From assembly GCA_047974415.1 (NCBI GenBank), contig JBKECH010000002.1, positions 13,419 to 77,418 of the forward strand: a stretch of 64,000 nt of DNA, in the 5' to 3' direction. The position numbers and the translations under genes were made by a program. The notes below the pieces were generated by a model. The model did no database searches. It had not been told where the DNA came from and saw only the letters and a list, made by a program, of their open reading frames with translations. Shown here piece by piece: positions 10,450-28,725 of the stretch; positions within the stretch are counted from its first letter, which is position 1; each line of letters begins with the position of its first letter. The stretch comes from Bacteroidales bacterium. Its GTDB lineage: Bacteria; Bacteroidota; Bacteroidia; Bacteroidales; Prolixibacteraceae.

Positions 10450-10598
10450 TAGTGGCTGTCCATAATGTCAAGAGTCTGAACTATAAAGTTAAATATCAAG
10501 GCTTGTCGTTCTGTATACTGAGAGTTTGTGAATTGGGAGTTTACTTGTATTCGCAAAGTGAGCATAACGCAAATATTTGACTTCATAGACGAACTCTA
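10450..10598 (+). mobile_element. MITE-like repeat family 1, copy 2 (short form, forward)
   Basis: TAGTGGCTGTCCATAATGTCAAGAGTCTGAACTATAAAGTTAAATATCAAGG...GCATAACGCAAATATTTGACTTCATAGACGAACTCTA. The terminal CTA is the complement of the AraC gene stop codon. Confidence 0.88.
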
Positions 10599-11468
10599 GT
10601 TAAAAAGCTCTTTCTGCTTTAAGTAGCTACCCGGATTCAGACCCATTACTTTCTTAAATTGCCTGTTGAAATACGACAAATTGTTGTATCCGCAATTAAA
10701 GCAAACCTCCGAAATGGACAGGTTGCCCTCGATGAGCAACTTGCAAGCAAAGCCAATGCGCACTTCGTTAATAAACTCAGTTATGGACTTTCTGGTTTTC
10801 TGTCTGAAAAACCGACATAGCGATGCGGGTGTCATGTTGGCAAGCAATGCCAAGTCTTTCAGTTTTATTTCCTTGTCAAAATTCGACAATACATAGTCGT
10901 GAATCTTATCAATGCGCCTAGAATGATGTTTTTGGTAATGTTCTGCAAATGGAATGCTCGACAAAATAGTCTCATCCTCCACTTGCGCCAATTCGTTTAG
11001 CAGAGTCAGCAAACTTGTCAGCCGTTCAAATGCTGATTGTTGCAACATCTGGTGCAGGCTTTGCTTAACGAGATGCTTCGCCGATAGATTATAGCTAATG
11101 CCTCGTGCCGATAAGCCAATGAGCCTCCTGATGGAAGACATCTCGGGTAGCTCCCATAAACCATCGCCCATGAAGTTTGCCCCGAAATGTAGAACAATGG
11201 CACTAACCTTCTTCTTGGAATCTTTTCTAAAATAACTATCATCACTTCGCCATACATGTGGCAAGCTGGCACCTAGCAATACTAAGTCGCCACTGACAAA
11301 CCTCGATATATCGTCGCCAATAAAACGAGTACCCTCGCCCTCGATAATGTAAACCAGTTCCAGCTCGGAATGATAATGCCAATGGTCGTGGAACATCGGT
11401 TGCTTGTCCTCGCGTATGGCAATGGACTGATTGGGTTGCTTGGTGAGCTTGAAATACTGAGCTTGCAT
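10596..11468 (-). CDS. AraC family transcriptional regulator (N-terminal cupin-type sensor, C-terminal double HTH)
   Basis: HWHYHSELELVYIIEGEG cupin-like N-terminus. The C-terminal LCRFFRQKTRKSITEFINEVRIGFACKLL...GYNNLSYFNRQFKKVMGLNPGSY is an AraC signature. The gene is divergent from the GH2/SusCD cluster. Confidence 0.88.
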   Translation of the reverse strand: MQAQYFKLTKQPNQSIAIREDKQPMFHDHWHYHSELELVYIIEGEGTRFIGDDISRFVSGDLVLLGASLPHVWRSDDSYFRKDSKKKVSAIVLHFGANFMGDGLWELPEMSSIRRLIGLSARGISYNLSAKHLVKQSLHQMLQQSAFERLTSLLTLLNELAQVEDETILSSIPFAEHYQKHHSRRIDKIHDYVLSNFDKEIKLKDLALLANMTPASLCRFFRQKTRKSITEFINEVRIGFACKLLIEGNLSISEVCFNCGYNNLSYFNRQFKKVMGLNPGSYLKQKELFN

Positions 11469-11701
11469 GTAACTTTTCTTTGTTAGTGTAATTGGTTGAT
11501 CCTCGAATTTGAAGCAAATTTACCCTTAATTACTTAATCGTGAAAAAATAGTTCAAGTTACAGGTAAAATTATTCTAGTAACCGCTTTGGTAATGTTGTA
11601 GTTTTGTAAGAGCAATGTAAAGCTTAAGTGACGGTTTGAGCGTGGCGTGCTCCACTTGGAACTTTGTGAGGTGCCACAATTATTTGAAAATCAAAAAATA
11701 A

Positions 11702-14635
11702 ATGATTATGATAAAAACTAAGAACACGTTAATTTATCTGCTTCTGTCCATGTTGTATACTAGTAGTATTTACGGGCAGCTGACAGTTGCTCCACATCGA
11801 TTATCTGTCGAGCCGACAATAGTGAGCCTAAATGGGAGGTGGAACTTCCATCTGTCTTATACAAAACCCTTGTCCGAAGTTGGAAAAGAAGCCGACAGAT
11901 GGTCTACAATAGAAGTGCCAGGCGAGTGGGCAATGCAAGGCTTTGAAGTTGAAGCAGGCAAGGCTGGAGTTTACTCTCGCACGTTTGACGTGCCAAAATC
12001 GTGGAAAGACCATAAGGTATTTGTGCGTTGCGATGCAGTTTTTAGTGCTGCCAAGCTCTTTGTTAATGGCAAAGCCACTGGCACGCACACCGGCCCGATG
12101 GTGGCTTTTGAAAAAGAAATTAGCGCATGGTTAGAATATGGCAAAGAAAATAGAATAAGCATTGCCGTAACTGCCGAAACAATGGCAGATACTCTGATGT
12201 CTGGAACTCAATACGCCGCCCATCAGCTGGGAGGGATTGTGCGTAAAATATATCTGTATGCAGTGCCAAAGGTCTATTTGTCGGACTTGGTAGTAAGCAC
12301 ACCTTTCGATGCTGACTACGAAAATGCAAAACTAAATATCAACGCAAAGCTAAATAATGACGCCTCGCTTACTAGTGCTGAAGTGTCGGTGCGACTGTTC
12401 GACCTTAGTGGCAAGCTGGTGGCAATGCCAAATGCAAAGCAAAATATAAAAATAGATGCTCAAGAAACCCCACTCTCTTTGTCATTCCCAATAATGAAAC
12501 CTCTGAAATGGGACGCCGAGCATCCCCATCTATATAAATTGGAACTAGAACTTAAAACCTCTGCTGGCACGGAAACCATTATCAGGAAAATAGGCTTCAG
12601 GAAAATTGAGGTGGTAGGGAATCAACTCTTTGTAAATGGAACAGCAGTGAAGCTGAAAGGGGTGAATAGGCACGAGGTGCACCCCTTGCTGGGGCGTAGT
12701 CTTACACCCGATCTGTGGTGGCAAGATGCCAAGCTGTTTAAGCAAGCAAACGTAAATTACATCAGGACTTCGCACTATCCTCCTGCCAGGGAGTTTATAG
12801 AACTCTGCGACAGCATTGGGCTGTATGTGGAACTCGAAAATCCAATATGTTGGGTGGGGCATGGTGCAAATGCACATTGGGTAAAGAACAACCCTAAAGA
12901 TGATGGCTTTTACAAGTATTTTGAACAGATTGCTAGTGCCGACTTGAGCTTTTTCCGAAACCATGCCAGCATCATAATCTGGTCGATGGCAAACGAATCA
13001 ATGTGGACAGAGAACTGGTCTAAACTTGCCGACTTCTATGCAAAGGAAGACCCTACACGCCCAGCCTCTTTTCATGATCAAGCATACGGCGGATTTAATA
13101 ACTACGGTAGTGGGAAGATGCCGGTTGCCAATATTCACTACCCCGGAGCAGACGGTGCTAGTATTGCCGAAGACTTTGAGCGCCCACTCTTGTTTGGCGA
13201 ATATGCCCACCTGAATACCTACAACCGCGAGGAGATTGTAACCGACCCCGGAGTGCGCGATGCGTGGGGTAGGGGCTTTCGTAGCATGTGGGAGAAAATG
13301 TATAAAAGCCGCGGTTGCCTTGGTGGCGCTATCTGGTCTGGTATCGACGATGTGTTCTATCTCCCCGACGGACGGGCGGTTGGCTATGGGGAATGGGGAC
13401 CAATAGACGGCTGGCGACGCAAAAAACCAGAGTACTACCACATGAAGAAGAGCTACTCGCCCGTGAGAATACATAACCGACATGTCGCCCTGCCAAAGGA
13501 TGGTCAGCCCATACGTCTGCAAATAGAAAATCGTTTCGATTTTACAAACCTAAACGAGTGCCAAATTTATTGGGAGCTCGACGGCGAAAAGGGAACACTT
13601 AAGATGAATCTGCCTGCTAAGAAGACTGGAATCCTAGATCTCTACCCAAAGACAAGAGACCTGAACGGCAAAATACTTATGCTTCGCATAGTGTCTCCTC
13701 AGGGTATAGAGGTGGAGGCGTGTGCGGTGGAAATAGGAGCTGTGAAACGAGACGATTTCCCTTTCCAGAAAATATCGACTTCTGAGCTTGAAACTATTCA
13801 GGCGGAGCATGAACTAGAAATAGTTGGACGTGATTTTAAGTGGTCGTTCGATCTGACAAATGGAGTGCTAAGCAGTGCAAATGTCGATGGCGAGCAAGTA
13901 TTAAACGGTGGAGCAGAGCTAATGATGCTCGACCTGAGAACAGGACCATGCAACACGGAACATAGCCTAGAAATACCAACCCACAACTCTCTGTGTACAA
14001 ACAAGGAAGTGAAAAGGGTAGAGTGGAAGCAGGTGAAGGATACTGTGCGAGTTGTGGTGGAAGTAAACTATAAACAGGCCGAGGGTGAAATAATTTACTC
14101 CTTTGCGGCAGGTGGCAATTTGAAAGTAGACTACAAAATGAAATCGAAGTTAAAGATGGACCCTCGACAATGGGGACTCGTATTCTCAGTTCCTAAAGAA
14201 TCTGAAAATTTGCAGTGGTATCGCAAAGGACTGTGGAGTTGGTATCCTGACAATCACATTGGTCGTACCAATGGTAAGGCAGTACCTTTTAGTGATAAAG
14301 CTCTGCGCATAGAATCGTTCGGACAAGAGCCCAAAGACGCTTGGTGCTTTGATGCCACCTCGCTAGGTACTAATGATTTTAGGGCTACTCGCGAGAACAT
14401 ATACTGGGCAGCTCTTTCAAATTCGGCAGGGCGTGGGCTTACCGTTCTTTCTGACGGCACGCATGCTTTTCGGGCTTTTGTAGACGGCGCCGAGAAGATT
14501 AGCTTCCTAGTAGCAGGCTACTCGACAGGTGGTGGCGACCTATTTTTTAGTGGGCATTATGCCAAAGAACGTAAAAGCTTGGAGGAAGGTAGCGAGTTCG
14601 GATCGTCGGCAACATTGCAATTGGTGAAGAAATAA
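11702..14635 (+). CDS. Glycoside hydrolase family 2 (beta-galactosidase-like), secreted, 977 aa
   Basis: Signal peptide; NYIRTSHYPP, IIWSMANES (acid/base NE) and LFGEYAHLN (nucleophile E) motifs. Confidence 0.88.
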   Translation: MIMIKTKNTLIYLLLSMLYTSSIYGQLTVAPHRLSVEPTIVSLNGRWNFHLSYTKPLSEVGKEADRWSTIEVPGEWAMQGFEVEAGKAGVYSRTFDVPKSWKDHKVFVRCDAVFSAAKLFVNGKATGTHTGPMVAFEKEISAWLEYGKENRISIAVTAETMADTLMSGTQYAAHQLGGIVRKIYLYAVPKVYLSDLVVSTPFDADYENAKLNINAKLNNDASLTSAEVSVRLFDLSGKLVAMPNAKQNIKIDAQETPLSLSFPIMKPLKWDAEHPHLYKLELELKTSAGTETIIRKIGFRKIEVVGNQLFVNGTAVKLKGVNRHEVHPLLGRSLTPDLWWQDAKLFKQANVNYIRTSHYPPAREFIELCDSIGLYVELENPICWVGHGANAHWVKNNPKDDGFYKYFEQIASADLSFFRNHASIIIWSMANESMWTENWSKLADFYAKEDPTRPASFHDQAYGGFNNYGSGKMPVANIHYPGADGASIAEDFERPLLFGEYAHLNTYNREEIVTDPGVRDAWGRGFRSMWEKMYKSRGCLGGAIWSGIDDVFYLPDGRAVGYGEWGPIDGWRRKKPEYYHMKKSYSPVRIHNRHVALPKDGQPIRLQIENRFDFTNLNECQIYWELDGEKGTLKMNLPAKKTGILDLYPKTRDLNGKILMLRIVSPQGIEVEACAVEIGAVKRDDFPFQKISTSELETIQAEHELEIVGRDFKWSFDLTNGVLSSANVDGEQVLNGGAELMMLDLRTGPCNTEHSLEIPTHNSLCTNKEVKRVEWKQVKDTVRVVVEVNYKQAEGEIIYSFAAGGNLKVDYKMKSKLKMDPRQWGLVFSVPKESENLQWYRKGLWSWYPDNHIGRTNGKAVPFSDKALRIESFGQEPKDAWCFDATSLGTNDFRATRENIYWAALSNSAGRGLTVLSDGTHAFRAFVDGAEKISFLVAGYSTGGGDLFFSGHYAKERKSLEEGSEFGSSATLQLVKK

Positions 14636-14672
14636 AGAGAACATAGAAATAAATATAAACAGATTAAACCTC

Positions 14673-14777
14673 CATGCAGTAGGCTATAGGCTGTAAGCTA
14701 TAAGCCTAACTACACATAGGAGGATGATTATAAACCAGCAAAAGCATAAAGCCAAAGGCTTACAGCTTATTGCAGAA
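14673..14777 (+). repeat. Repeat family 2 copy, ending 10 nt upstream of the GH2-2 start codon
   Basis: CATGCAGTAGGCTATAGGCTGTAAGCTATAAGCCTAAC...GGCTTACAGCTTATTGCAGAA, then CTTTAAAAAA, then ATGAAA. Confidence 0.85.
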
Positions 14778-14787
14778 CTTTAAAAAA

Positions 14788-17703
14788 ATGAAAAGTATAA
14801 GCCTGATAGTATCAGTATTGTTAAGTGCTTTGATAGTGCAAGCACAATTTACATTCGACCAGAAGAAGTTGGCAACAATTCGATGGTCTCCTGTTCCGAA
14901 AGAGTTTAAGGGGCTTGAAGATTTTAAAATCAGCCTTGATGGGACATGGAAGTTTAGCCCCTCGCCTGAAGAATCTTTCCAAGAAAAGAATGATGCAAGC
15001 TCATGGCAAGATATCGAAGTGCCCGGAGAATGGGTGATGCAAGGTTTTGAGGTGGATGCAGGTAAGTCTGCAGCTTACCACAGAACATTTAGTGTGCCAA
15101 GTAGTTGGGAAGGATGCCGTATCAAGTTGAAGTGCGAAGCTGTCTATAGTGAATGTACAATCTGGATTAACGGACAAATGGTTGGAGGGCATCTGGGAGG
15201 TTTTACAGCCTTTGAGCTTGATATTACTGACGCTGTGAAGAAGGGAACAAACACCATTGCCATGTCTGTTCGTAGCGAGAGTGTTGTGGATACTTTGTCG
15301 TCGGGATCGCAGTATGCTGTACATCCCTTGGGAGGAATTTCGCGCTCTATATATTTGGTGGCACTTCCTGACGTGAACATTGCCTCTATGCATGTGCAAA
15401 CATCTTTCGACAAATTGTATGAGAATGCTGTTTTAGAAACAGAAATCAACTTGGCAAACGAAGCCTCGACGGGGCGTACAGCCGTTTTGCACTTTCTTCT
15501 TACCGATGCAAATGGCACTAAGGTTTCTTTCGACGGAGAGGCGCAAATGACTGTCGATGTTGAGAAAGGGATGCAAACGGCAATTAAAATGAAGATGGAT
15601 GTAACAAAGCCCAAGAAATGGGATGCCGAACATCCCAACTTGTATTACCTGAATTGTACGCTCTTTGTAGACGGTAAAGAGCAGACGACTGTTTCTCGGC
15701 GCTTTGGATTTAGGCAGATTGAGGTGCGAGGCAATCAGGTGTTTGTTAATAATATGCCCATCAAGTTGCGAGGAGTCTGCCGACATGAGGTTCACCCTTT
15801 GCGAGGCCGCTCTTTGAATGGCAATCAATGGTATGAGGATGTGAAAATCTTTCGCGAAGGCAATGTGAATTACATACGAACTTCTCACTACCCACCCAGC
15901 GAGAAACTTTTGGAAGCCTGCGACGAGCTGGGGATGTTTGTTGAGGTGGAGGGACCGTTTTGTTGGGCAAGTAAAAAGAACGTGAACAACTCAAATTATT
16001 TTGAAGCTATTGTACAGCCAGTCCTCGAGATGGTGGAGATAAACAAATCTCATCCCTCAGTTTTGATATGGTCAATAGCAAACGAATCCTATGACTTTGA
16101 TGATCTCTTCAAAGAAACGTCAGACCTTGTAAAGAAAGCAGACCCCTCAAGACCTAGGAATTTTAGTCAATACGGACCCGACGGCGATGGCGGATATTTG
16201 GAAATTGCAAACAACCACTACCCCGGACCAGGAGGCCCAGAGAAGTATAAGAACTACGAGCGCCCAATTACCTTCGATGAGTATTGCCACCTGAACGCCT
16301 ACAACCGTTTTGAGTTGATGACAGACCCTGGTATTCGCGACTATTGGGGAGATATCCTCTATCATATGTGGGAGAATATGTATGCATCCAAAGGTGTGCT
16401 AGGTGGGGCTTTGTGGGCCGGTATAGACGATTCGTTCTTCTTGCCGTCGGGCAAGGTTGTGGGATATGGAACATGGGGACCAATAGATGGTTGGCGAAGA
16501 CCTAAACCTGAGTATTGGCACATGAAGAAAATATATTCGCCTGTGAAAATCAAACTCATCAACGGCGTTGGAGATAAGGCAGTAAAACTCTCGATAGAAA
16601 ATCGCTTTTTCTTTTCTAATCTGAATGAGTGTCGCATTGAGTGGAGTAACAATAAAGAAAAAGGGCAGTTGTCTGTCGATGCGCAAGCCGGAGCGAGTAT
16701 AGAAGCGACATTGCCATTTAGCTACGATAAGCTGGAGAATTTAAAGCTAAGGGTATATAAGGATAGTGAAGTTCCTGTTGATGAGTATTCTTTCGACCTT
16801 TCCACTCCTAATATTGAAGAACATAAAGAGACTGACGATGAGTTTCATTGGAGCACAAAAGGAAGTACGCAACTTGCCGTTAGCAACAAGATAAGAGTTG
16901 AGATAGGAAATAGAGCTTTGCAAGTTTACGATTCTAAGGGTAACAAGGTCATGGATGGATTTCCAACGCTCATGTTGGTATCTGCCAATGACAAAGGCGA
17001 TACGCAGATGACAAAGCAAACTCCCGACTACACTTTGTACTCGCCAACGGCGTCTAATCGTCGTATTCATTCCATCGACCTTACTAAGAACGACGAGGGT
17101 AGTTTTACTGTCAGTCTTACAGAGGGCTACGATGAAGCCGTAGGTACATTGCAAATGCATTTCTCTGCCGATGGTGCGATAAACATGGACTACTCCTACT
17201 CGATGATGAAGAATGAAAACTTCAGGCAGTGGGGTCTTGCCCTAAGACTGCCAGAGAATTTTACGAAGTTGAGATGGGAAAGAAAAGGATTGTGGACAGT
17301 ATATCCCAAGGATCATATAGGACGTCTTGCGGGTGAAGCTCTGTTAACGTACAGCCACGATTTGTGTGGTTTGGCAGGACCATCCAAACAACCTAACTAT
17401 GCCTACAACCAAGACCAAACGCAATATGGTAGCAATGATTTTCGCTCCACAAAACGCAATGTTTATAGAGCATCATTAAGTTCCACCAAGCATAGTAGTC
17501 TAAACCTGCTGTCGGATGGAAGTCAGCATGTACGTAGCTGGTCGGAAGCTGGAAGTGTTCATTGGCTGATTGCTGATTACGACAATCCTGGGTCGGAACG
17601 ATTCCTCCGGGGATATAGCTCGCACGCCAGACTGTATGACATTCCCCTTACACGAGGACAGAAGATTAGTAGCTCTATAAGACTGAAAATTACAAACGAA
17701 TAA
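14788..17703 (+). CDS. Glycoside hydrolase family 2 (beta-galactosidase-like) paralog, secreted, ~971 aa
   Basis: Same architecture and motifs as the upstream gene (NYIRTSHYPP, LIWSIANES, TFDEYCHLN). ATG at 14788 (MKSISLIVSVLLSALIVQAQ) is preferred to the TTG at 14770. Confidence 0.88.
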   Translation: MKSISLIVSVLLSALIVQAQFTFDQKKLATIRWSPVPKEFKGLEDFKISLDGTWKFSPSPEESFQEKNDASSWQDIEVPGEWVMQGFEVDAGKSAAYHRTFSVPSSWEGCRIKLKCEAVYSECTIWINGQMVGGHLGGFTAFELDITDAVKKGTNTIAMSVRSESVVDTLSSGSQYAVHPLGGISRSIYLVALPDVNIASMHVQTSFDKLYENAVLETEINLANEASTGRTAVLHFLLTDANGTKVSFDGEAQMTVDVEKGMQTAIKMKMDVTKPKKWDAEHPNLYYLNCTLFVDGKEQTTVSRRFGFRQIEVRGNQVFVNNMPIKLRGVCRHEVHPLRGRSLNGNQWYEDVKIFREGNVNYIRTSHYPPSEKLLEACDELGMFVEVEGPFCWASKKNVNNSNYFEAIVQPVLEMVEINKSHPSVLIWSIANESYDFDDLFKETSDLVKKADPSRPRNFSQYGPDGDGGYLEIANNHYPGPGGPEKYKNYERPITFDEYCHLNAYNRFELMTDPGIRDYWGDILYHMWENMYASKGVLGGALWAGIDDSFFLPSGKVVGYGTWGPIDGWRRPKPEYWHMKKIYSPVKIKLINGVGDKAVKLSIENRFFFSNLNECRIEWSNNKEKGQLSVDAQAGASIEATLPFSYDKLENLKLRVYKDSEVPVDEYSFDLSTPNIEEHKETDDEFHWSTKGSTQLAVSNKIRVEIGNRALQVYDSKGNKVMDGFPTLMLVSANDKGDTQMTKQTPDYTLYSPTASNRRIHSIDLTKNDEGSFTVSLTEGYDEAVGTLQMHFSADGAINMDYSYSMMKNENFRQWGLALRLPENFTKLRWERKGLWTVYPKDHIGRLAGEALLTYSHDLCGLAGPSKQPNYAYNQDQTQYGSNDFRSTKRNVYRASLSSTKHSSLNLLSDGSQHVRSWSEAGSVHWLIADYDNPGSERFLRGYSSHARLYDIPLTRGQKISSSIRLKITNE

Positions 17704-17708
17704 TTACA

Positions 17709-18407
17709 ATGACTGTAAATAATTGGAAAAACGATGAAGAGCTTTTCGGGTTTATCCGTAATGAGCTCTATACGGCTGTGGTTGGTGATATAATGGACAA
17801 GATGGGACTAATCCATCAGTTTCTTCCACCACAAATCAGACCCTTGAAAGAAAAGATGATGCTTGTAGGGCGAGCAATGCCAGTGTTGGAGGCAGATTGT
17901 TTTGAGGAGTTGAGTCCTGACTCGCAAAACCCATTGATGAACAAAGCTTTTGGATTGATGCTGGAAGCTCTAGACGATATAAAGCCAGGAGAGGTCTATA
18001 TCTGTTCAGGTTCTTCGCCATCGTATGCGCTTGTTGGCGAATTGATGCTTACACGTGTTAAGATGTGTGGTGGTGTTGGAGCTGTTGTTAATGGTTATTC
18101 GCGAGACACACATGGGATATACGACGTTGGCTTGCCAGTGTTCTCCTACGGACCTTATTCGCAAGATCAAGCTCCTCGCGGAAAGGTAATGGACTTTCGA
18201 GTTCCCATAGAAATGAACGGAGTGCGCATTGAGCCAGGAGACATTGTCTTTGGCGACATAGATGGGGTTTGTGTTGTTCCGAAATCAGCAGAAAACGAGG
18301 TGTTTTGCAAAGCTCTGGAAAAAGCTCGGGGCGAGCGAACAGTATTGAAAGCCATTCAGGGAGGAATGGGCGCTGTAGAGGCATGGAATAAATACCAAAT
18401 AATGTAG
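17709..18407 (+). CDS. RraA-like family protein (class II pyruvate aldolase / oxaloacetate decarboxylase fold)
   Basis: 232 aa; GELMLTRVKMCGGVGAVVNGYSRD and GDIVFGDIDGVCVVP resemble RraA/HMG-CHA aldolase family blocks. The start is 5 nt after the GH2-2 stop. Confidence 0.7.
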   Translation: MTVNNWKNDEELFGFIRNELYTAVVGDIMDKMGLIHQFLPPQIRPLKEKMMLVGRAMPVLEADCFEELSPDSQNPLMNKAFGLMLEALDDIKPGEVYICSGSSPSYALVGELMLTRVKMCGGVGAVVNGYSRDTHGIYDVGLPVFSYGPYSQDQAPRGKVMDFRVPIEMNGVRIEPGDIVFGDIDGVCVVPKSAENEVFCKALEKARGERTVLKAIQGGMGAVEAWNKYQIM

Positions 18408-18513: not shown

Positions 18514-19674
18514 ATGAAGATTACAGATGTGAAAGTATGGTTGGTTGAAGGAGTAAAATACAACTGGACCATGCTAAAGATATATACCGATGAAGGGCTA
18601 ACAGGTGTTGGTGAAGCAACAAATTGGCCAGGGAGTCAGATTGTCGAAGCGGCAGCAAAAGATGCAGGGCAACGGATAATAGGGCTTAACCCCATGCGCA
18701 CTGATTTTATATGGACTAAGTTGTATCGAGATTTGAACTGGGTTGGTCCTTTTGGGGCAAGCATGTGTGCTATCTCGGGCATAGACATGGCCCTCCTAGA
18801 CTTGAAAGCAAAAAAGCTTGGCGTTCCGATGTACGAACTCCTAGGCGGAGCATATCGGACTAAAATCAGACTGTATGCCAACTACTGGTTCACCAAAGGG
18901 GAGCATAATGCTGATGACTATGCCCGACAAGCCAGGCAGGTAGTAGATATGGGATTCAAAGGAGTGAAATTCGACCCTTTTGCACATGTCAATTATTTGT
19001 ACGGCGAAGATTTAAGTACTGATTTAGGCTTAACAAAAAAACAACAAGACCGTGCATACGAAGTGAGCAAGGCTGTACGTAATGCTGTTGGCGAGGAAGC
19101 TGACCTTATGATAGAAACCCACGCAATGCTAAACTTTAAGACGGCAGTGACGATGGCAGAGCGGCTGTCTGAATTGAATATCACATGGTACGAAGAGCCA
19201 GCAGGGCCAGAAAATGCAAATACTCTCAAAGCCTTTCGGAAGCGGATAGACTCGAAGGTGTCAATTTGTGTGGGAGAACGACACTATACAAGGTTTGGCA
19301 TCAGAGAACTGCTCGAAAAACAGATTGTCGACGTAATAATGCCAGACATTACTCGCTGTGGTGGTCCTTCGGAGATGAAGCGGATGGCAACGATGGCAGA
19401 GGCTTACAATGTGCTTTTAGCTCCACACAATCCCAATGGACCTCTTTCTACATTGGCAAGTGCTCATCTCTGCGCTGCGATTCCGAATTTCTTCCGACAG
19501 GAGTTTATCTTCAACGATGTCTCGTGGAGAGATGAAATAATAGACCACCCACTTGAGATTTGTGATGGTAACTTGATATTGTCGGAGCGTACGGGATTGG
19601 GTGTCGATTTGCTTGAGCATGAACTGGAGAAACATCCAGGCATAAGAATAGCACGGAACGGGTATTACATATAA
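18514..19674 (+). CDS. Enolase-superfamily (mandelate racemase/muconate lactonizing enzyme family) sugar-acid dehydratase, galactonate-dehydratase-like
   Basis: MKITDVKVWLVEG...LKIYTDEGLTGVGEA N-terminal capping domain, GIDMALLDLKAKKLGVPMYELLGG, and barrel-domain acidic ligands (..IETHA.., WYEEP, CVGERH). Confidence 0.8.
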   Translation: MKITDVKVWLVEGVKYNWTMLKIYTDEGLTGVGEATNWPGSQIVEAAAKDAGQRIIGLNPMRTDFIWTKLYRDLNWVGPFGASMCAISGIDMALLDLKAKKLGVPMYELLGGAYRTKIRLYANYWFTKGEHNADDYARQARQVVDMGFKGVKFDPFAHVNYLYGEDLSTDLGLTKKQQDRAYEVSKAVRNAVGEEADLMIETHAMLNFKTAVTMAERLSELNITWYEEPAGPENANTLKAFRKRIDSKVSICVGERHYTRFGIRELLEKQIVDVIMPDITRCGGPSEMKRMATMAEAYNVLLAPHNPNGPLSTLASAHLCAAIPNFFRQEFIFNDVSWRDEIIDHPLEICDGNLILSERTGLGVDLLEHELEKHPGIRIARNGYYI

Positions 19675-19684: not shown

Positions 19685-20473
19685 ATGTTAGCAATAGATT
19701 TGAAGAATAGGGTAGCCATTGTAACAGGTGTTTCGAGTGGTATCGGGGCAGGCGTGGCTAGGATGCTTGCCAAAGCAGGATGTAATGTTGCAGGATGTGC
19801 AAGAGCAAATGAGGATGAAAAAAATGTTGTAGCATTTCGTGCTAGCGTTGAAGAGTTTGGGCAGAAAGCATTTTACAAAAAAGTAGATGTAACAAATAAT
19901 GAGCAACTACTGGCATTTGTGAGATGTGTTGCCGACGAGTTTGGCAAAATAGACATTGTAGTCTCCAATGCAGGAGCGAATATCTTTAAAGGTGCAGCCG
20001 ATTGTACGGAAGATGAATGGGAATATAATCACAATTTGAATTTGGCATCGCATTGGCGTTTGGCAAAATTGAGCAAACAGTATTTGGAGAAAAGCAAAAC
20101 TGGAGTTTTTATAATAATGAGCTCTAACCATGCTTATTCGTCTATACCTGGTTGTTTTCCCTACAATGTTACAAAAACGGCACTCACAGGTTTGGTAAGA
20201 GCAATGTCCATAGAGTGGGGGCCAGCTGTTCGGGTGCTAGGTCTGGCTCCAGGGTTTATCGATACTCCAGGAAACGATACATGGTTTAATTCTTTTCCAG
20301 ATGCTACTGCCGAGCGTCAAAGAACGATAGACCTACATCCAGCAGGTAAGCTCGGAACTACCGAAGAGGTTGGAGCTTGGTGTGCTTTTCTGGCAAGCGA
20401 TTTTGCCGCTTTCGCAACGGGGGCTACATATCTCCTCGACGGCGGTAGAGCCGCATTGATGCAAGATAATTAA
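19685..20473 (+). CDS. Short-chain dehydrogenase/reductase (SDR) family oxidoreductase
   Basis: TGVSSGIGAG cofactor motif, NAG, and catalytic YNVTKTA (YxxxK). Confidence 0.85.
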   Translation: MLAIDLKNRVAIVTGVSSGIGAGVARMLAKAGCNVAGCARANEDEKNVVAFRASVEEFGQKAFYKKVDVTNNEQLLAFVRCVADEFGKIDIVVSNAGANIFKGAADCTEDEWEYNHNLNLASHWRLAKLSKQYLEKSKTGVFIIMSSNHAYSSIPGCFPYNVTKTALTGLVRAMSIEWGPAVRVLGLAPGFIDTPGNDTWFNSFPDATAERQRTIDLHPAGKLGTTEEVGAWCAFLASDFAAFATGATYLLDGGRAALMQDN

Positions 20474-20485
20474 AAGAATCAGGTA

Positions 20486-21373
20486 ATGATAAATTGTTTA
20501 GATAAATTAGAACTTGTTGCTAACACTCCAAAAGCAAGACTCGGCGAAGGTGCAGTATGGCATCCTGTCGAGCAGGTTCTCTACTGGGTTGATATAACGG
20601 AAGGGAAGCTACATTGTTATAATCCAGCAAACGAGGAAAATCAGACTTTCTCAATGGGCAGCATGATTGGGACGGTGGTTCCTGCAAAAGGACGATTTAA
20701 TGTGCTTGTGGCTTTGGAGACAGGTATTTATGGAAGGGCTCTCGACGGGGAGATGTTCAAGTTGGCAGACTATCCGCGAGAAGTTGCAAACAATAGATTC
20801 AATGATGGGAAGTGCGATCCCAAAGGCAGATTCTGGGTCGGAACGATGAATAAAAAAGTTATAGATGGAGCTGGTGCTTTATACCTTTTTGATGGACATC
20901 AGCTTGCCATAAAAAGGTCGGGAATGACTATTCCCAACGGAGTGGTTTGGTCGTCCGATGGGCAAACTATGTATCATGTAGACACTGCGGAATCTGCCGT
21001 TTTTGCCTACGACTTTAATCTCGAAAGTGGAGCCCTATCGAGGCGCCGAATTGCCATAAAAGTGCCACAAGAACTGGGTGTCCCCGATGGAATGTCCATA
21101 GATTCGGCAGATATGTTGTGGATTGCGCATTGGGGTGGCAAGGCTGTTGTCCAATGGAATCCTCTAACTGGTGAGAAGGGTAGAGTGATAGATGTCCCTG
21201 CTCCTCACGTAACATCTTGTGCCTTCGGAGGTGAGAATCTTAAAACACTGTACATAACGACTGCGCAAGAAGGATTGACAGACAAACAACTGCGAGAGTA
21301 TCCTTTAAGCGGAAGCTTGTTTAAAATACCAATCGATGTAGAAGGAACTTATTCAGGAATATACGGAGAATAG
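20486..21373 (+). CDS. SMP-30/gluconolactonase/LRE family lactonase
   Basis: EGAVWHPVEQVLYWVDI, NDGKCDPKGRFWVGTM, PNGVVWS and PDGMSIDSADMLWIAHWGG beta-propeller blocks. Confidence 0.82.
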   Translation: MINCLDKLELVANTPKARLGEGAVWHPVEQVLYWVDITEGKLHCYNPANEENQTFSMGSMIGTVVPAKGRFNVLVALETGIYGRALDGEMFKLADYPREVANNRFNDGKCDPKGRFWVGTMNKKVIDGAGALYLFDGHQLAIKRSGMTIPNGVVWSSDGQTMYHVDTAESAVFAYDFNLESGALSRRRIAIKVPQELGVPDGMSIDSADMLWIAHWGGKAVVQWNPLTGEKGRVIDVPAPHVTSCAFGGENLKTLYITTAQEGLTDKQLREYPLSGSLFKIPIDVEGTYSGIYGE

Positions 21374-21461
21374 GGAGGAATGTTTTGAAAGAAAACGACA
21401 GATGCGACAACATCTATCGTCTAAAAATATGATGCTGATAACATCATTTGTTCAAATTAAC

Positions 21462-21476
21462 GATCACAAAGTGATC
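21462..21476. promoter_or_regulatory. Perfect palindrome GATCAC-AAA-GTGATC 27 nt upstream of the susC-like start; candidate operator
   Basis: Seen directly. A second inverted repeat, ATGATG-N7-CATCAT, lies at 21429-21447. Confidence 0.3.
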
Positions 21477-21502
21477 ACTTGTTAAATTAAAAGCTTAAAG
21501 AT

Positions 21503-24500
21503 ATGAAGAAAATCTATGACTTAAAAATGAAGTTGATTCAAAGACTGCTTGTGCCTTTATTGGCGCTGATTGTAGGAGCTAATCTTCTTAATGCTCAGTC
21601 AGTAACGCTCTCCGGAACTGTTACAGAAGCCGAAACCAGAGCGCCTCTGGTTGGCGTGTCGGTGTTTATTAAAGGAACAACTATTGCAACTATTACAGAT
21701 GTCGACGGTACTTTCTCTATAAAAGCAACACCACAGGCAAAAGTGCTTGTATTTTCGTTTATCGGGATGAAGACTAAAGAAGTCTCGATTGGTAGCAACA
21801 ATGTTATTAACGTCAGCATGGAGAGCGATGCCATTGGGCTCGAAGAGATTGTGGCAGTTGGATATGGTATTCAAAAAAAGGAAAACCTGACGGGCTCGGT
21901 GGCTGTTATAAAAAACGAAGTCCTAGAAAATCGTCCGAATAAGGATGCTGTTGATATGTTGCAAGGTATAGTGCCAGGACTTAACATAACAAGGAGTTCT
22001 GGCAATATTGGAGAAACAGCATCCCTAAATATAAGAGGGACAACTACACTTGGAGAAGGCTCAAGTGGAGCTCCGCTGGTTCTTGTCGATGGAGTAGAAG
22101 GTGATTTGTCTATGGTAAATCCACAAGATATTGATAACATTTCGGTATTAAAAGACGCGGCGGCATCGTCAATATATGGTTCTCGTGCTCCATTTGGTGT
22201 AATCCTAGTGACGACAAAGAAAGGAACGAAAGGAAAAACCACAGTTAATTATAACAATAGTTTTAGGATAGGCACGCCTAATCACTGGCCAGATGTTTCC
22301 GATTCTGAAACATTTGCTTATGTAATGAATGACAATTTTAACAATGCTGGTTCTGGAGATTATTTTGGTAAGGAATGGTTAGATCGTATTATTCGCTATA
22401 AAAATGGAGAAAAAGTACCTATGATTTATGATAGTGACGGGCGATGGGTTCCTGGATATAATGCTGGACATGCCAATGAAAATTGGATGCGTGGAGTCTT
22501 TAGCAATCAGGCAGTGTCGCAGGAGCATAATTTCAGCATGAAGGGAGGAAGCGAAGATATTCAGTATTATATTTCTGGAGGTTTCTTGGATGAAAATGGA
22601 CTCCTAAAGATTAATCAAGATAACTTCAAACGTTATAACATAACTGCAAAGGTTGACGCATCCTTAACATCCTTCCTTGAAATGGAGTTTATCAATCGTT
22701 TTTCAAGAAAAGATTACAAACGACCAACTTATCTAAATAGTAGTATCTGGAATAATATTTTGCGACAAGGGTGGCCTATCATGCCAATGTACGATGATAA
22801 TGGCTATTTGTATGATAGCGCAGCAAGCCCTGTTTTGAAATTAAGAGACGGAGGTCAGCAAAATGAAATTAACGACATAAATACACATCAGCTTAGGCTT
22901 ACTGCCCGTCCTATCAAAGGTTGGCAAATTGTTGGTAGTGGAACATATAAATCATCTAATAATTTTACGAGCTGGAATACTCTCCATTTCTACAATCATG
23001 ATAAGGATGGCAATCCATATTATGCGGAGGGAGGCTCTGAAAGCTCTGTGCATGAGTACGCTTTTAAGTCTGATTATTACAATCTTAGCGTGCATTCCGA
23101 TTATGAATTTAAATTAAATGTGCACGACTTTAAAGTAATGCTTGGTAGTCAAGTCGAGAACTATAATCAGCGAGATCTAACAGGAGAGAGAATGGGCTTG
23201 ATATCCGATGAAATACACTCTTTAGGTACGACAACAGGAATAGACTCTAGAGGAGAAATTGTTGCTCCTTTCTTGGGTGGCGCTTATTACGACTGGGCTG
23301 TAGCAGGATTTTTCGGAAGACTAAACTACAACTACGATAATCGCTATCTTTTTGAAGCCAATCTCCGTTATGATGGTTCTTCTCGTTTCAGGAAAGATGC
23401 TCGTTGGCTCACTTTGCCTTCTTTCTCTTTTGGGTGGAATGTTGCTAACGAGAGTTTTATGAATATAGAAGAACTAACTCAGCTGAAACTGAGAGCCTCT
23501 TACGGCTCACTAGGCAACCAGAATACTAATGGTTGGTATCCAACGTATATTACTCAACCAGTAGGGATACAGAATGGAGGATGGTTGATTGATGGGCAAA
23601 AACCCAATACTGCATATGCCCCAGGGCTTATTAGTAGTAGTCTGACTTGGGAACGCGTTGAAAGCTATAATCTTGGATTGGATTTTGCCTTTTTAGATGG
23701 GCGTCTTAGTGGAGCCTTTGACTATTATGTGAGAAATACGCTCGATATGGTTGGCCCAGCTCCAGAACTTCCTAATGTTTTGGGGACTGCTGTTCCAAAG
23801 CAAAATAATACCGACCTGCGTACTTCTGGATGGGAGTTGTCTTTGGCTTGGAACGACGCTTCGAATTTGTGGGGAGATAAGCTTCGCTATGGAATAAATA
23901 TAACATTATCAGACTCTAGAACGAAAATTACTCGTTATCCGAACGAAAGTAACAGTTTGACAACCTATCGAGAAGGTCAGATGCTTGGCGAGATTTGGGG
24001 TTATCAGACAATTGGTATTGCCAAAACTCAAAAAGATATGGATGCGCATTTATCTACATTGCCTAATGGAGGGCAGTTTGGAATAACCAATCTTACTGCA
24101 GGAGATATAATGTATAAAGACCTTAATTTAGACGGTAAGATTAGTTCGGGCGCAAACACATATGGCGACCCTGGCGATAGGAGAATAATTGGAAATAGTA
24201 CCCCTAGGTATCTTTTTGGAACAACATTGACAGCAAATTTTAAAGGTTTTGATTTGAGAGCCTTTTTTCAGGGAGTGTTAAAACGAGACTATGCTACTTC
24301 GTCGCAACTCTTCTTCCCAGGAGGCTGGATATGGGATGTCATTGTACTAGACCAGCAACTGGACTATTTCAGAGCATCAGAAGATAGTCCACTAGGTCAG
24401 AATCTTAACGCATACTATGCACGCCCGATAAATAATGATGGCAGAAACACTCATGTTCAGACTAGATATCTGCTTAACGCATCTTATGTCAGACTGAAAA

Positions 24501-24703
24501 ATCTTACGCTTGGGTATACTCTACCAAGTAATATGATAAATCGCTGGGGAGTAGGTAATGTGAGGTTTTTTGTTTCGGGGGAAAACTTATTTACGATAAC
24601 AGGATTGACTAAGATTTTCGACCCCGAGCTTATTCACACAAACAATCAGAACTCTTATCCTATATTTAGGACAATATCTTTTGGGCTTAGCTTAAATATA
24701 TAA
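21503..24703 (+). CDS. susC: SusC/RagA family TonB-linked outer membrane transporter
   Basis: 1066 aa; signal, carboxypeptidase-regulatory-like N-domain (VTLSGTVTEAETRAPLVGVSVFIKGT...DGTFSI), plug (NISVLKDAAASSIYGSRAPFGVILVTTKKG), C-terminal ...ISFGLSLNI. Confidence 0.92.
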   Translation: MKKIYDLKMKLIQRLLVPLLALIVGANLLNAQSVTLSGTVTEAETRAPLVGVSVFIKGTTIATITDVDGTFSIKATPQAKVLVFSFIGMKTKEVSIGSNNVINVSMESDAIGLEEIVAVGYGIQKKENLTGSVAVIKNEVLENRPNKDAVDMLQGIVPGLNITRSSGNIGETASLNIRGTTTLGEGSSGAPLVLVDGVEGDLSMVNPQDIDNISVLKDAAASSIYGSRAPFGVILVTTKKGTKGKTTVNYNNSFRIGTPNHWPDVSDSETFAYVMNDNFNNAGSGDYFGKEWLDRIIRYKNGEKVPMIYDSDGRWVPGYNAGHANENWMRGVFSNQAVSQEHNFSMKGGSEDIQYYISGGFLDENGLLKINQDNFKRYNITAKVDASLTSFLEMEFINRFSRKDYKRPTYLNSSIWNNILRQGWPIMPMYDDNGYLYDSAASPVLKLRDGGQQNEINDINTHQLRLTARPIKGWQIVGSGTYKSSNNFTSWNTLHFYNHDKDGNPYYAEGGSESSVHEYAFKSDYYNLSVHSDYEFKLNVHDFKVMLGSQVENYNQRDLTGERMGLISDEIHSLGTTTGIDSRGEIVAPFLGGAYYDWAVAGFFGRLNYNYDNRYLFEANLRYDGSSRFRKDARWLTLPSFSFGWNVANESFMNIEELTQLKLRASYGSLGNQNTNGWYPTYITQPVGIQNGGWLIDGQKPNTAYAPGLISSSLTWERVESYNLGLDFAFLDGRLSGAFDYYVRNTLDMVGPAPELPNVLGTAVPKQNNTDLRTSGWELSLAWNDASNLWGDKLRYGINITLSDSRTKITRYPNESNSLTTYREGQMLGEIWGYQTIGIAKTQKDMDAHLSTLPNGGQFGITNLTAGDIMYKDLNLDGKISSGANTYGDPGDRRIIGNSTPRYLFGTTLTANFKGFDLRAFFQGVLKRDYATSSQLFFPGGWIWDVIVLDQQLDYFRASEDSPLGQNLNAYYARPINNDGRNTHVQTRYLLNASYVRLKNLTLGYTLPSNMINRWGVGNVRFFVSGENLFTITGLTKIFDPELIHTNNQNSYPIFRTISFGLSLNI

Positions 24704-24727
24704 AATCCTCCACAAAAAATAAATAAA

Positions 24728-26752: not shown

Positions 26753-26795
26753 TATCTGTCCATGATGTTTCGTATTTAACTAAAAACAAATAATC

Positions 26796-27794
26796 ATGAG
26801 TTTATTCGGAGGTTTAACGATTGTAATTATTGCGGGAATATTGCAAGGTTCTTATTTCCTGCCTATGACCTATACAAAGAGATGGGAGTGGGCGCATAGT
26901 TGGTTTGCTTTTTCCTTGCTTGGTATGCTGTTGATAAACTGGATAATTGCTTTTCTGAGCATTGGCGAAATAGGTGCAATTATCTCAAGCATACCAAGTA
27001 ACTTAATGTTGCAGGTTCTATTGTTTGGACTATTATGGGGAGCAGGGGCTATCTTGTTTGGTAAAGCAATGGATATGTTAGGGATGGCCTTAGGATATCC
27101 AATAATTATGGGTATAAATGCTGTTGCTGGAGCTATTGTCCCTGCGTTGGTATTTTCGGCAGACATATTTTTACATTTGAAAGGAGTGCTTATTATTGTC
27201 GGGTCTATTATTTCGGTAGTCGGGATTGTATTTTGTGCATCGGCTTCTTCTCAGAAAGAGGATAAATCAAGGATGTCTCGCTACACGTCAATGGGTTTAA
27301 TTTTGGCAGTGATTTCGGGATTTACTTCCTGTCTGCCTAACTTGGGGGCGGCATTTAGCAAGGGAATAACAGATATAGCAATCGAGCATGGTGTCAATAA
27401 GGCTATTGCAGGGAATGTTATATGGTCTTTGTTTTTCACTACAGGAGCAGTGGTAAACATGGGGTACTGTCTATTTGTTTTAGAGAGAAAGAGAGAAACT
27501 GCAGAATTTTTTAATAGTTATAAGACAAGGAATTGGGGACTGTTGTCTATAATGTCTCTGATGTGGATTGGCAGTTTTTACGCCTATGGTTATGGCTCTG
27601 TTGTGCTTGGAGATTTGGGTTTGATTGTTGGTTGGCCATTGTTGGTGTCTTTGTCAATTGTAGTAGGAAACTTATGGGGGATATTTCGAGGAGAATGGCG
27701 TGGAGCCCCAATCAAGGCTCGGAACACTTTGAATCTTGGAATGCTTGTTTTAATTGTTTCGGTAGTTGTCATTGCTCTAAGCAATTTGTTTTAA
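26796..27794 (+). CDS. RhaT-family (L-rhamnose/H+ symporter-like, DMT superfamily) sugar transporter
   Basis: 332 aa, ~10 TM. LLFGLLWGAGAILFGKAMDMLGMALGYPIIMG parallels the E. coli RhaT block [32 protein letters not shown]. Confidence 0.75.
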   Translation: MSLFGGLTIVIIAGILQGSYFLPMTYTKRWEWAHSWFAFSLLGMLLINWIIAFLSIGEIGAIISSIPSNLMLQVLLFGLLWGAGAILFGKAMDMLGMALGYPIIMGINAVAGAIVPALVFSADIFLHLKGVLIIVGSIISVVGIVFCASASSQKEDKSRMSRYTSMGLILAVISGFTSCLPNLGAAFSKGITDIAIEHGVNKAIAGNVIWSLFFTTGAVVNMGYCLFVLERKRETAEFFNSYKTRNWGLLSIMSLMWIGSFYAYGYGSVVLGDLGLIVGWPLLVSLSIVVGNLWGIFRGEWRGAPIKARNTLNLGMLVLIVSVVVIALSNLF

Positions 27795-27796
27795 TT

Positions 27797-27830
27797 GTTT
27801 TGGGCGGACTATTTTAAGTCCGCCCAAAAT
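27797..27830. terminator. Bidirectional hairpin between convergent genes
   Basis: TTTTGGGCGGAC-ATTTTAA-GTCCGCCCAAAA, a 12-bp perfect stem flanked by T and A runs. Confidence 0.6.
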
Positions 27831-27831
27831 G

Positions 27832-28725
27832 TTATTTAAAAGCTTCTTTTATGGGTCTTCCAGTCCAGACTTGTGGAAATTCAAGATCAAAAAGCCATGC
27901 TATTGTCGCACCGATGTCATAAATCATGATGCTTTGTTGCATCTCAGGTTGTTGTTTAACTTCTTTGCCGTAGAAAATCAAGGGCACCTGCATTTCTGCC
28001 ATTGTTTTCCCACCATGACCTTTGTTAATGCCACCATGGTCGGCAGAAACAATTACAAGGGTTTCTTTCTCAATGCCTGCATCTTTCAGTGCTTGTAGTA
28101 TTTTTGCAAGGTGTTGGTCGTTTTTCTTTAGTTGCTCGTAATATTCGGGAGTGTCGTGACCAATTTTATGGCCCACGGCATCGGGTTCATCGAAATGTAT
28201 AAACATCAGGTTAGGCTTCGAGCTAGTAATAATTCCCACTGCCTTTTCTAGCACCTCGTTGTCGCTGGCAGCGTTGACAACAGTATCTGTCATGTCTTTC
28301 TCAAACAAGTAGCCAATGCCGTCCCAGTTGTAGACAACTGCAGTTTTTAATTTTGATCTCTGGATTTTTATCTCTCCAAAGATTGAAGGGAAAATCCCTC
28401 CTTGCCCAATTACGCGCGAAGGTAATTCTGGAGTTTTGCTACCCCATTCTGTGTAGCCATGCAATTCGGGTGGTGAAGCCATTAGCATAGATGCCCAATT
28501 GACGGCCGAACTAGATGGTAGTGTTGACCTGCTCTTGAGGCTATACGCTCCATTTTTCATCATCATCTTTGCCGTTGGCATTTCTGCCTTGGGCACACTG
28601 TACGCACCCCAGCCGTCGAAGCCTACTAGAATAACATGTTTGATATTCTTGGGTGCCGAATACCCTTGAAACGAAAGAGTAAAAAACATCATAAACATCA
28701 AAAGTACTGTTGCTTTGTTTTTCAT
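27832..28725 (-). CDS. Alkaline-phosphatase superfamily protein (nucleotide pyrophosphatase/phosphodiesterase-like), secreted
   Basis: Signal peptide; VGFDGWGAY, HFDEPDAVGHKIGHDTPEY, VSADHGG metal-site blocks. Confidence 0.75.
   Translation of the reverse strand: MKNKATVLLMFMMFFTLSFQGYSAPKNIKHVILVGFDGWGAYSVPKAEMPTAKMMMKNGAYSLKSRSTLPSSSAVNWASMLMASPPELHGYTEWGSKTPELPSRVIGQGGIFPSIFGEIKIQRSKLKTAVVYNWDGIGYLFEKDMTDTVVNAASDNEVLEKAVGIITSSKPNLMFIHFDEPDAVGHKIGHDTPEYYEQLKKNDQHLAKILQALKDAGIEKETLVIVSADHGGINKGHGGKTMAEMQVPLIFYGKEVKQQPEMQQSIMIYDIGATIAWLFDLEFPQVWTGRPIKEAFK

Follow-up and report, generated by a model that had tools for sequence, protein, structure and literature searches.

An AraC-controlled glycan locus of a marine Bacteroidota species combines GH2 glycosidases and SusC/SusD with a putative kinase-less oxidative sugar route and an RraA-like candidate terminal enzyme

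Gene content and boundaries of the locus

The locus described here is an AraC-controlled polysaccharide utilization locus (PUL) for glycans in a marine Bacteroidota species, a Bacteroidales bacterium of the Prolixibacteraceae (assembly GCA_047974415.1; 3.2 Mb in 176 contigs, ~97% complete). It lies within a 64,000-nucleotide stretch, hereafter the window, that spans positions 13,419 to 77,418 of contig JBKECH010000002.1. Genes were called from a listing of open reading frames (ORFs) together with Pfam and NCBIfam profile scans of the window proteins. Divergent from an AraC-family regulator, the plus strand encodes two glycoside hydrolases of family 2 (GH2a and GH2b), an RraA-like protein (P0001), an enolase-superfamily dehydratase, a short-chain dehydrogenase/reductase (SDR), an SMP-30 lactonase, SusC, SusD, and a RhaT-like transporter (Table 1). 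This is the order given in a preliminary description of the window, and every gene named there was found as stated. SusC and SusD are adjacent, with both GH2 enzymes and the AraC regulator alongside, as expected of a SusC/SusD-type PUL. Export signals were predicted on GH2a, GH2b, SusC, and SusD and on none of the four catabolic enzymes. The locus contains neither a sugar kinase nor an aldolase of the Eda/DgoA, HpcH/HpaI, or DHDPS/NAL type, which bears out the earlier remark that no sugar kinase and no KDPG-type aldolase is encoded here.

The plus-strand genes are co-directional with 5-152 bp between neighbors, and this spacing, together with a terminator-like hairpin, delimits an operon-like unit. 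The preliminary description had placed the end of the locus at 28725 with the RhaT gene last; that coordinate belongs instead to an alkaline-phosphatase-superfamily gene past the terminator. Because this gene is convergent with the operon and lies beyond the hairpin, it falls outside the transcription unit; it was not seen beside gltX in two genus-mates. Housekeeping genes flank the locus: on one side lies the gene for a CCA-adding enzyme, and the opposite side carries gltX, lpxA, lpxC/fabZ, and lpxD.

The spacer between GH2a and GH2b is one copy of a repeat that is dispersed through the genome: a blastn search of 14636-14790 against the whole genome returned ~90 matches on many contigs at 82-95% identity. 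The paired GH2 genes are only 2-27 bp apart in Maribellus and Marinilabilia, so the ~130-bp repeat has been inserted within the operon here. A further copy is located at ~8600-8700 of the window.

Table 1. Positions of genes and other features in and next to the locus (window coordinates).
Feature	Position	Strand	Basis and remarks
AraC-family regulator, cupin sensor and HTH_18	10596-11468	-	Divergent from operon; Pfam HTH_18 77.5 bits; Cupin_2 and AraC_binding weak
GH2a, secreted LacZ-like five-domain GH2	11702-14635	+	Pfam GH2 N, Ig, and TIM domains; Bgal_small_N
GH2a-GH2b spacer, copy of genome-wide ~130-bp repeat	14636-14787	.	blastn
GH2b, secreted GH2a paralogue	14788-17703 (alternative start 14770)	+	Pfam GH2 domains
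RraA-like protein P0001, candidate 2-keto-3-deoxy-aldonate aldolase	17709-18407	+	Pfam PF03737 107.5 bits (cut-off 24.5)
Enolase-superfamily sugar-acid dehydratase, GalD-like	18514-19674	+	Pfam MR_MLE_N, MR_MLE_C
Classical SDR, candidate aldose 1-dehydrogenase	19685-20473	+	adh_short_C2 163 bits
SMP-30/gluconolactonase-family (SGL) lactonase	20486-21373	+	PF08450 262.4 bits
SusC-like TonB-dependent transporter	21503-24703	+	CarbopepD_reg_2, Plug, and beta-barrel domains
SusD-like lipoprotein, 674 aa	24728-26752	+	SusD-like_3, SusD_RagB; lipoprotein signal ending ...FSAC
RhaT/DMT-type sugar:proton symporter	26796-27794	+	Pfam RhaT PF06379 91.7 bits (cut-off 27)
Terminator-like hairpin	27796-27831	+	15-pair stem (7 G-C), T-rich tail, 2 bp past RhaT stop codon
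Secreted phosphodiesterase/alkaline-phosphatase/sulfatase-superfamily protein, 297 aa	27832-28725	-	Convergent with operon

Catalytic residues and relatives of the encoded proteins

P0001, a member of the PF03737 family, aligns to the HMG/CHA aldolase from Pseudomonas putida F1 (LigK/PcmE type; 3NOJ, aligned with phmmer) such that G110, E111, R132, D133, and E209 correspond to G101, D102, R123, D124, and E199, and none of these five residues varies among 19 aligned orthologues. In the aldolase, Arg-123 is essential and stabilizes the pyruvate enolate, Asp-124 and Glu-199 are acidic metal-binding residues, and Gly-101 lines the pyruvate pocket (PMC5065237). The AlphaFold2 model of P0001 reaches a pLDDT of only 76; its top 26 Foldseek matches are nevertheless all RraA-fold proteins, led by the long RraA forms 5ir2, 3noj (TM 0.62), yeast YER010C, and S. 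coelicolor RraAS2. From the fold and the conserved Arg-Asp, Glu, and Gly, it follows that the machinery for Mg-dependent 2-keto acid chemistry is present, and the aldolase-fold protein of the preliminary description does keep those residues that are catalytic in a class II pyruvate aldolase. P0001 thus resembles the HMG/CHA aldolase in its long-form RraA fold and active-site residues, a likeness that predicts Mg-dependent chemistry via a pyruvate enolate. It differs in overall sequence (~23% identity), in the exchange of Asp102 for Glu, and in its setting, which is sugar catabolism rather than the meta-cleavage of protocatechuate or gallate. Judged by sequence, the same residues would suit aldolase and other enolate chemistries alike, and the aldolase activity of P0001 is accordingly termed putative throughout.

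The dehydratase carries MR_MLE domains and was aligned with DgoD, RspA, RhmD, and GudD. Its E-x-H, EEP, GER, PD, and PH motifs stand at the positions of DgoD D183/H185, E209, E235, D258, and H285, and it has neither the RhmD nor the RspA residue pattern. Three carboxylate ligands, a His-Asp dyad, and a second His are therefore in place, as in galactonate-dehydratase-type enzymes; following the enolase-superfamily literature, we take these to be the metal ligands, the His-Asp base, and the His acid, respectively. We likewise take the DgoD pattern to denote anti-dehydration of (2R,3S) aldonates, namely D-galactonate, D-gluconate, L-arabinonate, D-xylonate, and D-fuconate. Among NCBIfam models, the protein scores highest with gluconate/galactonate dehydratase (245.9 bits, cut-off 750) and D-galactonate dehydratase (NF010624; 237.6 bits, cut-off 311), in both cases below the cut-off, compared with 117 bits for L-rhamnonate dehydratase and 25.8 bits for glucarate dehydratase. 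It shares with Escherichia coli DgoD the GalD-type His/Asp-His constellation and metal ligands, but it is 28.7% identical to that enzyme, falls below the GalD cut-off, and has Glu instead of Asp as the first metal ligand; moreover, the E. coli dgo (De Ley-Doudoroff) operon supplies DgoK and DgoA partners that the cassette lacks. The nearest relatives in the PDB are uncharacterized structural-genomics entries (2poz, 2gl5, 2o56, 2ox4, and others), and a literature search by PDB code gave nothing useful on their function.

The preliminary description had named profile-based subgroup assignment of the dehydratase and the SDR as a check. For the dehydratase, this check returns the sugar-acid (GalD-like) group with the GalD catalytic residues kept. 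For the SDR, it returns a classical SDR with generic relatives only in both NCBIfam and the PDB, the nearest named structures being FabG, glucose 1-dehydrogenase, and gluconate 5-dehydrogenase. The best PDB match of the lactonase is 7plb (E 1.3e-56), which we take to be the Caulobacter xylonolactonase.

Both glycosidases have GH2 Pfam domains above the cut-off, and their ANES and (G/D)EY(A/C)H motifs align to LacZ E461 and E537. Compared with LacZ and the beta-glucuronidase GUS, GH2a and GH2b keep the N-E acid/base, the nucleophile E in EYAH, and the equivalents of H357, H391, and W568; the LacZ Mg site, N604 loop, and W999 are missing from both. They are 37% identical to each other and match LacZ-type beta-galactosidases distantly (best PDB match ~190 bits). 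The GUS N566-x-K568 carboxylate motif is absent, GGNKKG being aligned (at ~25% identity) to GYGEWG or GYGTWG in GH2a, GH2b, and all of their orthologues, and we place the two enzymes with moderate confidence outside the beta-glucuronidase subgroup on this sequence evidence. The most likely start of GH2b is the ATG at 14788, which yields the signal peptide MKSISLIVSVLLSALIVQAQ.

The transporter scores below every NCBIfam L-rhamnose symporter equivalog (best 232.2 against a cut-off of 369), so membership in Pfam RhaT does not imply rhamnose specificity. Matches of the AraC regulator are generic and reach no NCBIfam equivalog. The suggestion that RhaT and AraC point to a 6-deoxyhexose-like inducer is consequently weak.

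Distribution of the cassette and other settings of RraA homologues

The RraA-like gene is single-copy in the source genome and rare elsewhere, being detected in 4/400 other sampled genomes of the phylum and 1/300 of the order (E<=1e-40). It was not found in two other species of the genus (E<=1e-20) or in two other members of the family (E<=1e-40). The gltX-lpx block retains its synteny in the genus-mates, where nothing of the locus is present; the blocks with the CCA-adding enzyme and gltX occupy separate contigs in both, and no insertion junction is definable. The locus is an accessory trait of the source species without a counterpart in its genus-mates.

The nearest RraA-like homologues come from Sunxiuqinia (87% identity), Maribellus (84%), and Marinilabilia (82-84%). 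More broadly, Marinilabilia, Maribellus, Tamlana, Chitinophaga, and several metagenome-assembled genomes share, at 55-87% identity, a core of AraC, GH2, RraA-like protein, enolase-superfamily dehydratase, SDR, and SMP-30 lactonase, and the conservation of its enzymes extends over the Marinilabiliales, Flavobacteriales, and Chitinophagales. The comparative genomics called for by the preliminary description thus confirms an enzyme set conserved across orders. Marinilabilia rubra (locus L026) has the identical order from AraC through GH2a, GH2b, the four enzymes, SusC, and SusD to RhaT, and a 7.2-Mb genome (L037) has the same gene set with RhaT shifted to the front. Other loci are variations on this plan: the cassette of Maribellus luteus (L008) has an SSF transporter; Tamlana and Chitinophaga (L007, L027) combine AraC with RraA, GH2, enolase, and SDR genes, with or without SGL; and a genome of the same order (L024) encodes a sulfatase, GH2, the four enzymes, an SSF transporter, and SusC/D. 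The glycosidase is swapped in L001, where GH97, RhaT, the four enzymes, and GH31 are encoded, and in L020, which has AraC, the four enzymes, GH97, and an MFS sugar porter. In Algibacter, the enzyme core lies beside PL8, GH88, a sulfatase, and GH29. Since the order or the core recurs in other genomes, the arrangement is not due to chance.

Conservation is uneven among the members. RraA (65-84% identity between loci) and the enolase (74-87%) are best conserved, and in all enolase-bearing loci the two genes are adjacent or separated by GH2 alone. An AraC orthologue (36-73% identity) is encoded beside the cassette in L004/5, L007, L008, L020, L026, and L037, and the orthologous GH2a/GH2b pair is kept in L008, L026, and L037. 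The partner glycosidases at other cassette loci are GH2, GH97, and GH31. RhaT orthologues (63-65% identity) adjoin the cassette in L001, L026, and L037, and SSF or MFS transporters stand in for RhaT in L008, L020, L024, and L025. SusC, by comparison, shares only 28-34% identity with its counterparts in related cassettes (e.g., L026, L027, and L024), and no SusD match passed the filter in the comparison with these three. The enzyme block and not the uptake pair is therefore the conserved unit, and the sequence identities suggest either an exchange of SusC/D or a divergence far more rapid than that of the enzymes.

Homologues of P0001 also occur in operons of different composition. One of these, in a complete genome of the same class (L021; G295:C1:1121700-1141600), encodes an RraA homologue 62% identical to P0001. 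Its minus-strand genes (~3233-13943) specify a GH38 alpha-mannosidase, RraA, an MFS sugar transporter, an SDR, a 7-bladed Pgl-type lactonase, a UxuA mannonate dehydratase, and GH76, with no kinase in the operon. The scheme is that of the cassette, built from a lactonase and a dehydratase of unrelated families, and it assigns the RraA-like enzyme a position after a sugar-acid dehydratase, with a 2-keto-3-deoxy-aldonate as its substrate, in that case 2-keto-3-deoxygluconate (KDG). The gene content suggests a non-phosphorylative D-mannose route via KDG. In haloarchaeal mannan degraders, similarly, manD, an SDR-type gene, and RraA occur within mannanase clusters (PMC10963439).

A second setting is a LacI-controlled cluster between two SusC/D pairs (L039, 4780-15790), in which an RraA homologue 77% identical to P0001 and its enolase partner are accompanied by a TRAP transporter, a URO-D-like protein, an HpcH aldolase, DUF386 (YhcH-like), a second enolase-superfamily gene, Eda, and two 2-hydroxyacid dehydrogenases; this cluster looks like an undescribed acidic-sugar route. 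Elsewhere, a PfkB kinase, a GH120-like protein, RraA, enolase, a URO-D-like protein, and a sulfatase are encoded together (L038, 10001-13440), and L002 has RraA, enolase, a 2-hydroxyacid dehydrogenase, GH29, and a GH78-like protein. To judge from these gene sets, the RraA-enolase pair appears also to handle acids from other routes, beside other aldolases. URO-D-like proteins pair with RraA homologues in both L038 and L039. At L023 (1-2790), an RraA homologue is found with an NRAMP-type transporter and an SDR. At L028 (10001-12212), a homologue 68% identical to P0001 lies directly 5' of a GH28 gene, with no enolase, SDR, or lactonase within 10 kb.

A proposed oxidative pathway and its alternatives

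Taking the observed gene content, export signals, conserved catalytic residues, and conservation of the cassette together, we infer the activities of its enzymes, the aldolase step, and the identity of the sugar as follows. We propose an inducible glycan locus in which the released sugar is oxidized without phosphorylation and the RraA-like enzyme performs the last, C-C-cleaving step, a proposal whose chances we put slightly above even. SusC/SusD would import an oligosaccharide, from which the two LacZ-like GH2 enzymes would free the monosaccharide as periplasmic exo-glycosidases, and the RhaT-type symporter would carry it into the cytoplasm. There, the SDR would oxidize it at C1 to a lactone, the SMP-30 lactonase would open the ring, and the GalD-like enolase-superfamily enzyme would convert the aldonate to a 2-keto-3-deoxy-aldonate. 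The Mg-dependent RraA-fold enzyme would then cleave the keto-deoxy acid to pyruvate and an aldehyde in the manner of a class II pyruvate aldolase, and an aldehyde such as glycolaldehyde or lactaldehyde could be oxidized by the AldA of the genome. This kinase-less oxidative reading is plausible because P0001 keeps the HMG/CHA aldolase residues and the mannosidase operon of L021 puts an RraA-like enzyme after a sugar-acid dehydratase. The logic of dehydrogenase, lactonase, dehydratase, and aldolase-fold protein set out in the preliminary description thus holds, with the aldolase step as its conjectural part.

The same four-step logic underlies the Dahms routes for D-xylose and L-arabinose, the non-phosphorylative Entner-Doudoroff and De Ley-Doudoroff routes for glucose and galactose, and the LRA1-4 route for L-rhamnose. 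All of these employ an NAD(P) aldose 1-dehydrogenase (often an SDR), a lactonase (often SMP-30), a dehydratase (often of the enolase superfamily), and cleavage of the keto-deoxy acid; no ATP is spent in them, nor would it be in the proposed route. As far as two reviews cover them, the terminal aldolases of described non-phosphorylative routes are of the HpcH/HpaI or DHDPS/NAL type (PMC9795676, PMC6336799). In the cassette, by contrast, the sole aldolase candidate has the RraA fold, and the route would be placed within a SusC/SusD locus with its own glycosidases. A tblastn search with E. coli YfaU found no HpcH/YfaU homologue in the source genome. Our search of the full-text literature found no paper that describes the cassette or says what this RraA clade does. 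The locus would represent non-phosphorylative sugar oxidation that is housed in a PUL and ends in an unconventional enzyme. An oxidative route in a PUL was expected to be unusual, and the locus is indeed rare in the order. Oxidative steps inside PULs nonetheless have precedents in the L-galactose route of Bacteroides vulgatus and the anhydrogalactose route of Zobellia.

Judging from which residues the dehydratase carries and which glycosidases accompany the enzymes, the substrate is probably a (2R,3S) aldose, namely D-galactose, L-arabinose, or D-xylose, and not a uronate or rhamnose. L-Rhamnose and L-fucose were considered and appear unlikely, as the dehydratase has the GalD and not the RhmD pattern and its best 60 PDB matches include no FucD-type structure; L-fucose is further argued against by FucI, FucK, and FucP, which are encoded as a cluster on contig C39. 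D-Galactose would best fit the GH2, GH97, and GH31 partners, yet it would duplicate the Leloir route, for which the source genome has GalK. L-Arabinose (as a pyranoside) or D-xylose, in turn, may fill a gap: neither AraA and RhaA nor XylA and XylB were found in the source genome, and among six cassette-bearing genomes GalK is present in 6/6, AraA in 2/6, and RhaA in 1/6. Either pentose would yield glycolaldehyde, a substrate of AldA-type enzymes. The source genome has just two aldehyde dehydrogenase (ALDH) genes. One encodes a protein 68% identical to E. coli AldA and adjoins three lutABC-like genes (contig C172, 7265-11741); the other appears, from its N-terminus alone, to be class-3-like. 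The three neighbors look like LutABC by their ORF sizes and N-termini, and together with AldA they could convert lactaldehyde via lactate to pyruvate, probably in the service of the C39 fucose cluster.

Several observations weigh against the proposed pathway. The source genome does encode one Eda (C90:10829-11506, beside a TRAP transporter) and a KdgK-like PfkB kinase (C172:28424-29470), and no GarK-type or MOFRL-type glycerate kinase for D-glyceraldehyde was found in it. The presence of GalK in all six cassette genomes would make a D-galactose route redundant. P0001 scores far under the NCBIfam equivalogs for CHA/HMG aldolase (64.4 against 179 for NF006731; 55.6 against 304.5 for TIGR02798) and for RraA proper, so it is no orthologue of the aromatic-pathway aldolase, and no function for its subfamily was found in the literature search. 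With HpcH and Eda in L039 and PfkB in L038, the RraA-like protein need not be the sole aldolase, or an aldolase at all. Finally, the only characterized RraA-like enzyme of Bacteroidota, FlDet, is a dehydratase/decarboxylase and not an aldolase (PMC8563752).

Alternatively, the exit could be semi-phosphorylative: the locus would stop at the 2-keto-3-deoxy acid, a distant KdgK-like kinase and Eda would take over, and the RraA-like protein would serve, for example, in oxaloacetate decarboxylation, in tautomerization or epimerization of the keto-deoxy acid, or in regulation. Both enzymes exist in the genome, L038 has PfkB two genes from the RraA-enolase pair, Eda is in the same cluster in L039, and RraA-family proteins also decarboxylate oxaloacetate (PMC5065237). 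We nonetheless regard this exit as unlikely. The kinase and Eda of the source genome are on other contigs, unlinked to the locus; no homologue of DgoK was found in that genome, and a DgoA query matches Eda only, at 35% identity. Furthermore, a kinase is encoded in 0 of ~10 cassette loci with the full enzyme set, and RraA is the best conserved, constant partner of the dehydratase.

FlDet itself is the model for a second alternative. This RraA-family enzyme of Flavobacterium sp. UMI-01 dehydrates and decarboxylates 2-keto-3-deoxy-glucarate to alpha-ketoglutarate semialdehyde (PMC8563752). In a Weimberg/FlDet-like exit, the RraA-like enzyme would make the same semialdehyde, either from a 2-keto-3-deoxy-pentonate by dehydration or from a keto-deoxy-hexarate by dehydration and decarboxylation, and an ALDH would oxidize it to 2-oxoglutarate. 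P0001 and FlDet are both RraA-fold proteins of Bacteroidota and share a G-D/E ... R-D motif, FlDet acts on a 2-keto-3-deoxy sugar acid and is tied to the degradation of a polysaccharide (alginate), and the source genome is without pentose isomerase routes. For membership in the FlDet type, we looked for close relation, as among the named orthologues (63-80% identical), together with an adjacent alpha-ketoglutarate-semialdehyde dehydrogenase. P0001 is only 27% identical to FlDet (sequence from the supplement of PMC8563752), and no ALDH is encoded in any cassette locus, whereas fldeg adjoins fldet. No FlDeg-like gene was found in the genome, the best match to FlDeg being 26% identical over 144 residues. 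FlDet is unlike the cassette protein, too, in its diacid substrate and its product. We therefore reject P0001 as an FlDet orthologue, retain FlDet as a mechanistic precedent, and hold an exit of this kind to be improbable.

Least probable, and in our view barely credible, is an oxidative uronate route, in which the GH2 enzymes would be beta-glucuronidases or beta-galacturonidases, the SDR a uronate dehydrogenase, the lactonase UxuL-like, the enolase-superfamily protein a glucarate/galactarate dehydratase, and the RraA-like protein a functional KdgD analogue: the enzyme classes match the Udh, UxuL, GudD, and KdgD scheme, and uronate-related genes accompany some relatives (PL8 and GH88 in Algibacter, GH28 by the 68%-identical RraA homologue, and UxaA/UxaC near the Chitinophaga cassette), but the GUS N566/K568 motif is missing, the dehydratase scores 25.8 bits with glucarate dehydratase against 238-246 with galactonate/gluconate dehydratases, the linked transporters (RhaT, SSF, and MFS sugar porter) are neutral-sugar types, and no alpha-ketoglutarate-semialdehyde dehydrogenase candidate was found in the genome. 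The SDR is, in addition, classical and FabG-like, and Udh is of the extended SDR type.

Returning to the non-phosphorylative route that we favor, a broader and more tentative proposal, to which we assign a little less than an even chance, is that this RraA clade is an unrecognized family of 2-keto-3-deoxy-aldonate aldolases that replaces the kinase and Eda in glycan loci of Bacteroidota, and probably beyond. The dehydratase would be modular, GalD-like for galacto and gluco sugars near GH2, GH97, and GH31 and UxuA for mannose near GH38 and GH76. Even were the proposal wrong, the conservation of the cassette would stand. If the RraA-like enzyme is an aldolase, it would constitute a third structural family beside HpcH and DHDPS/NAL in non-phosphorylative sugar catabolism, and the compact four-enzyme module with its matching glycosidases could serve for cell-free conversion of glycan sugars to pyruvate. 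Current pathway tools, which score kinases and Eda, HpcH, or DHDPS aldolases, miss such a route. A function would be at hand for thousands of genes annotated as “RraA / demethylmenaquinone methyltransferase” near carbohydrate-active enzymes, and an ATP-independent route of sugar catabolism would have to be added when the metabolism of marine, soil, and gut Bacteroidota is reconstructed.

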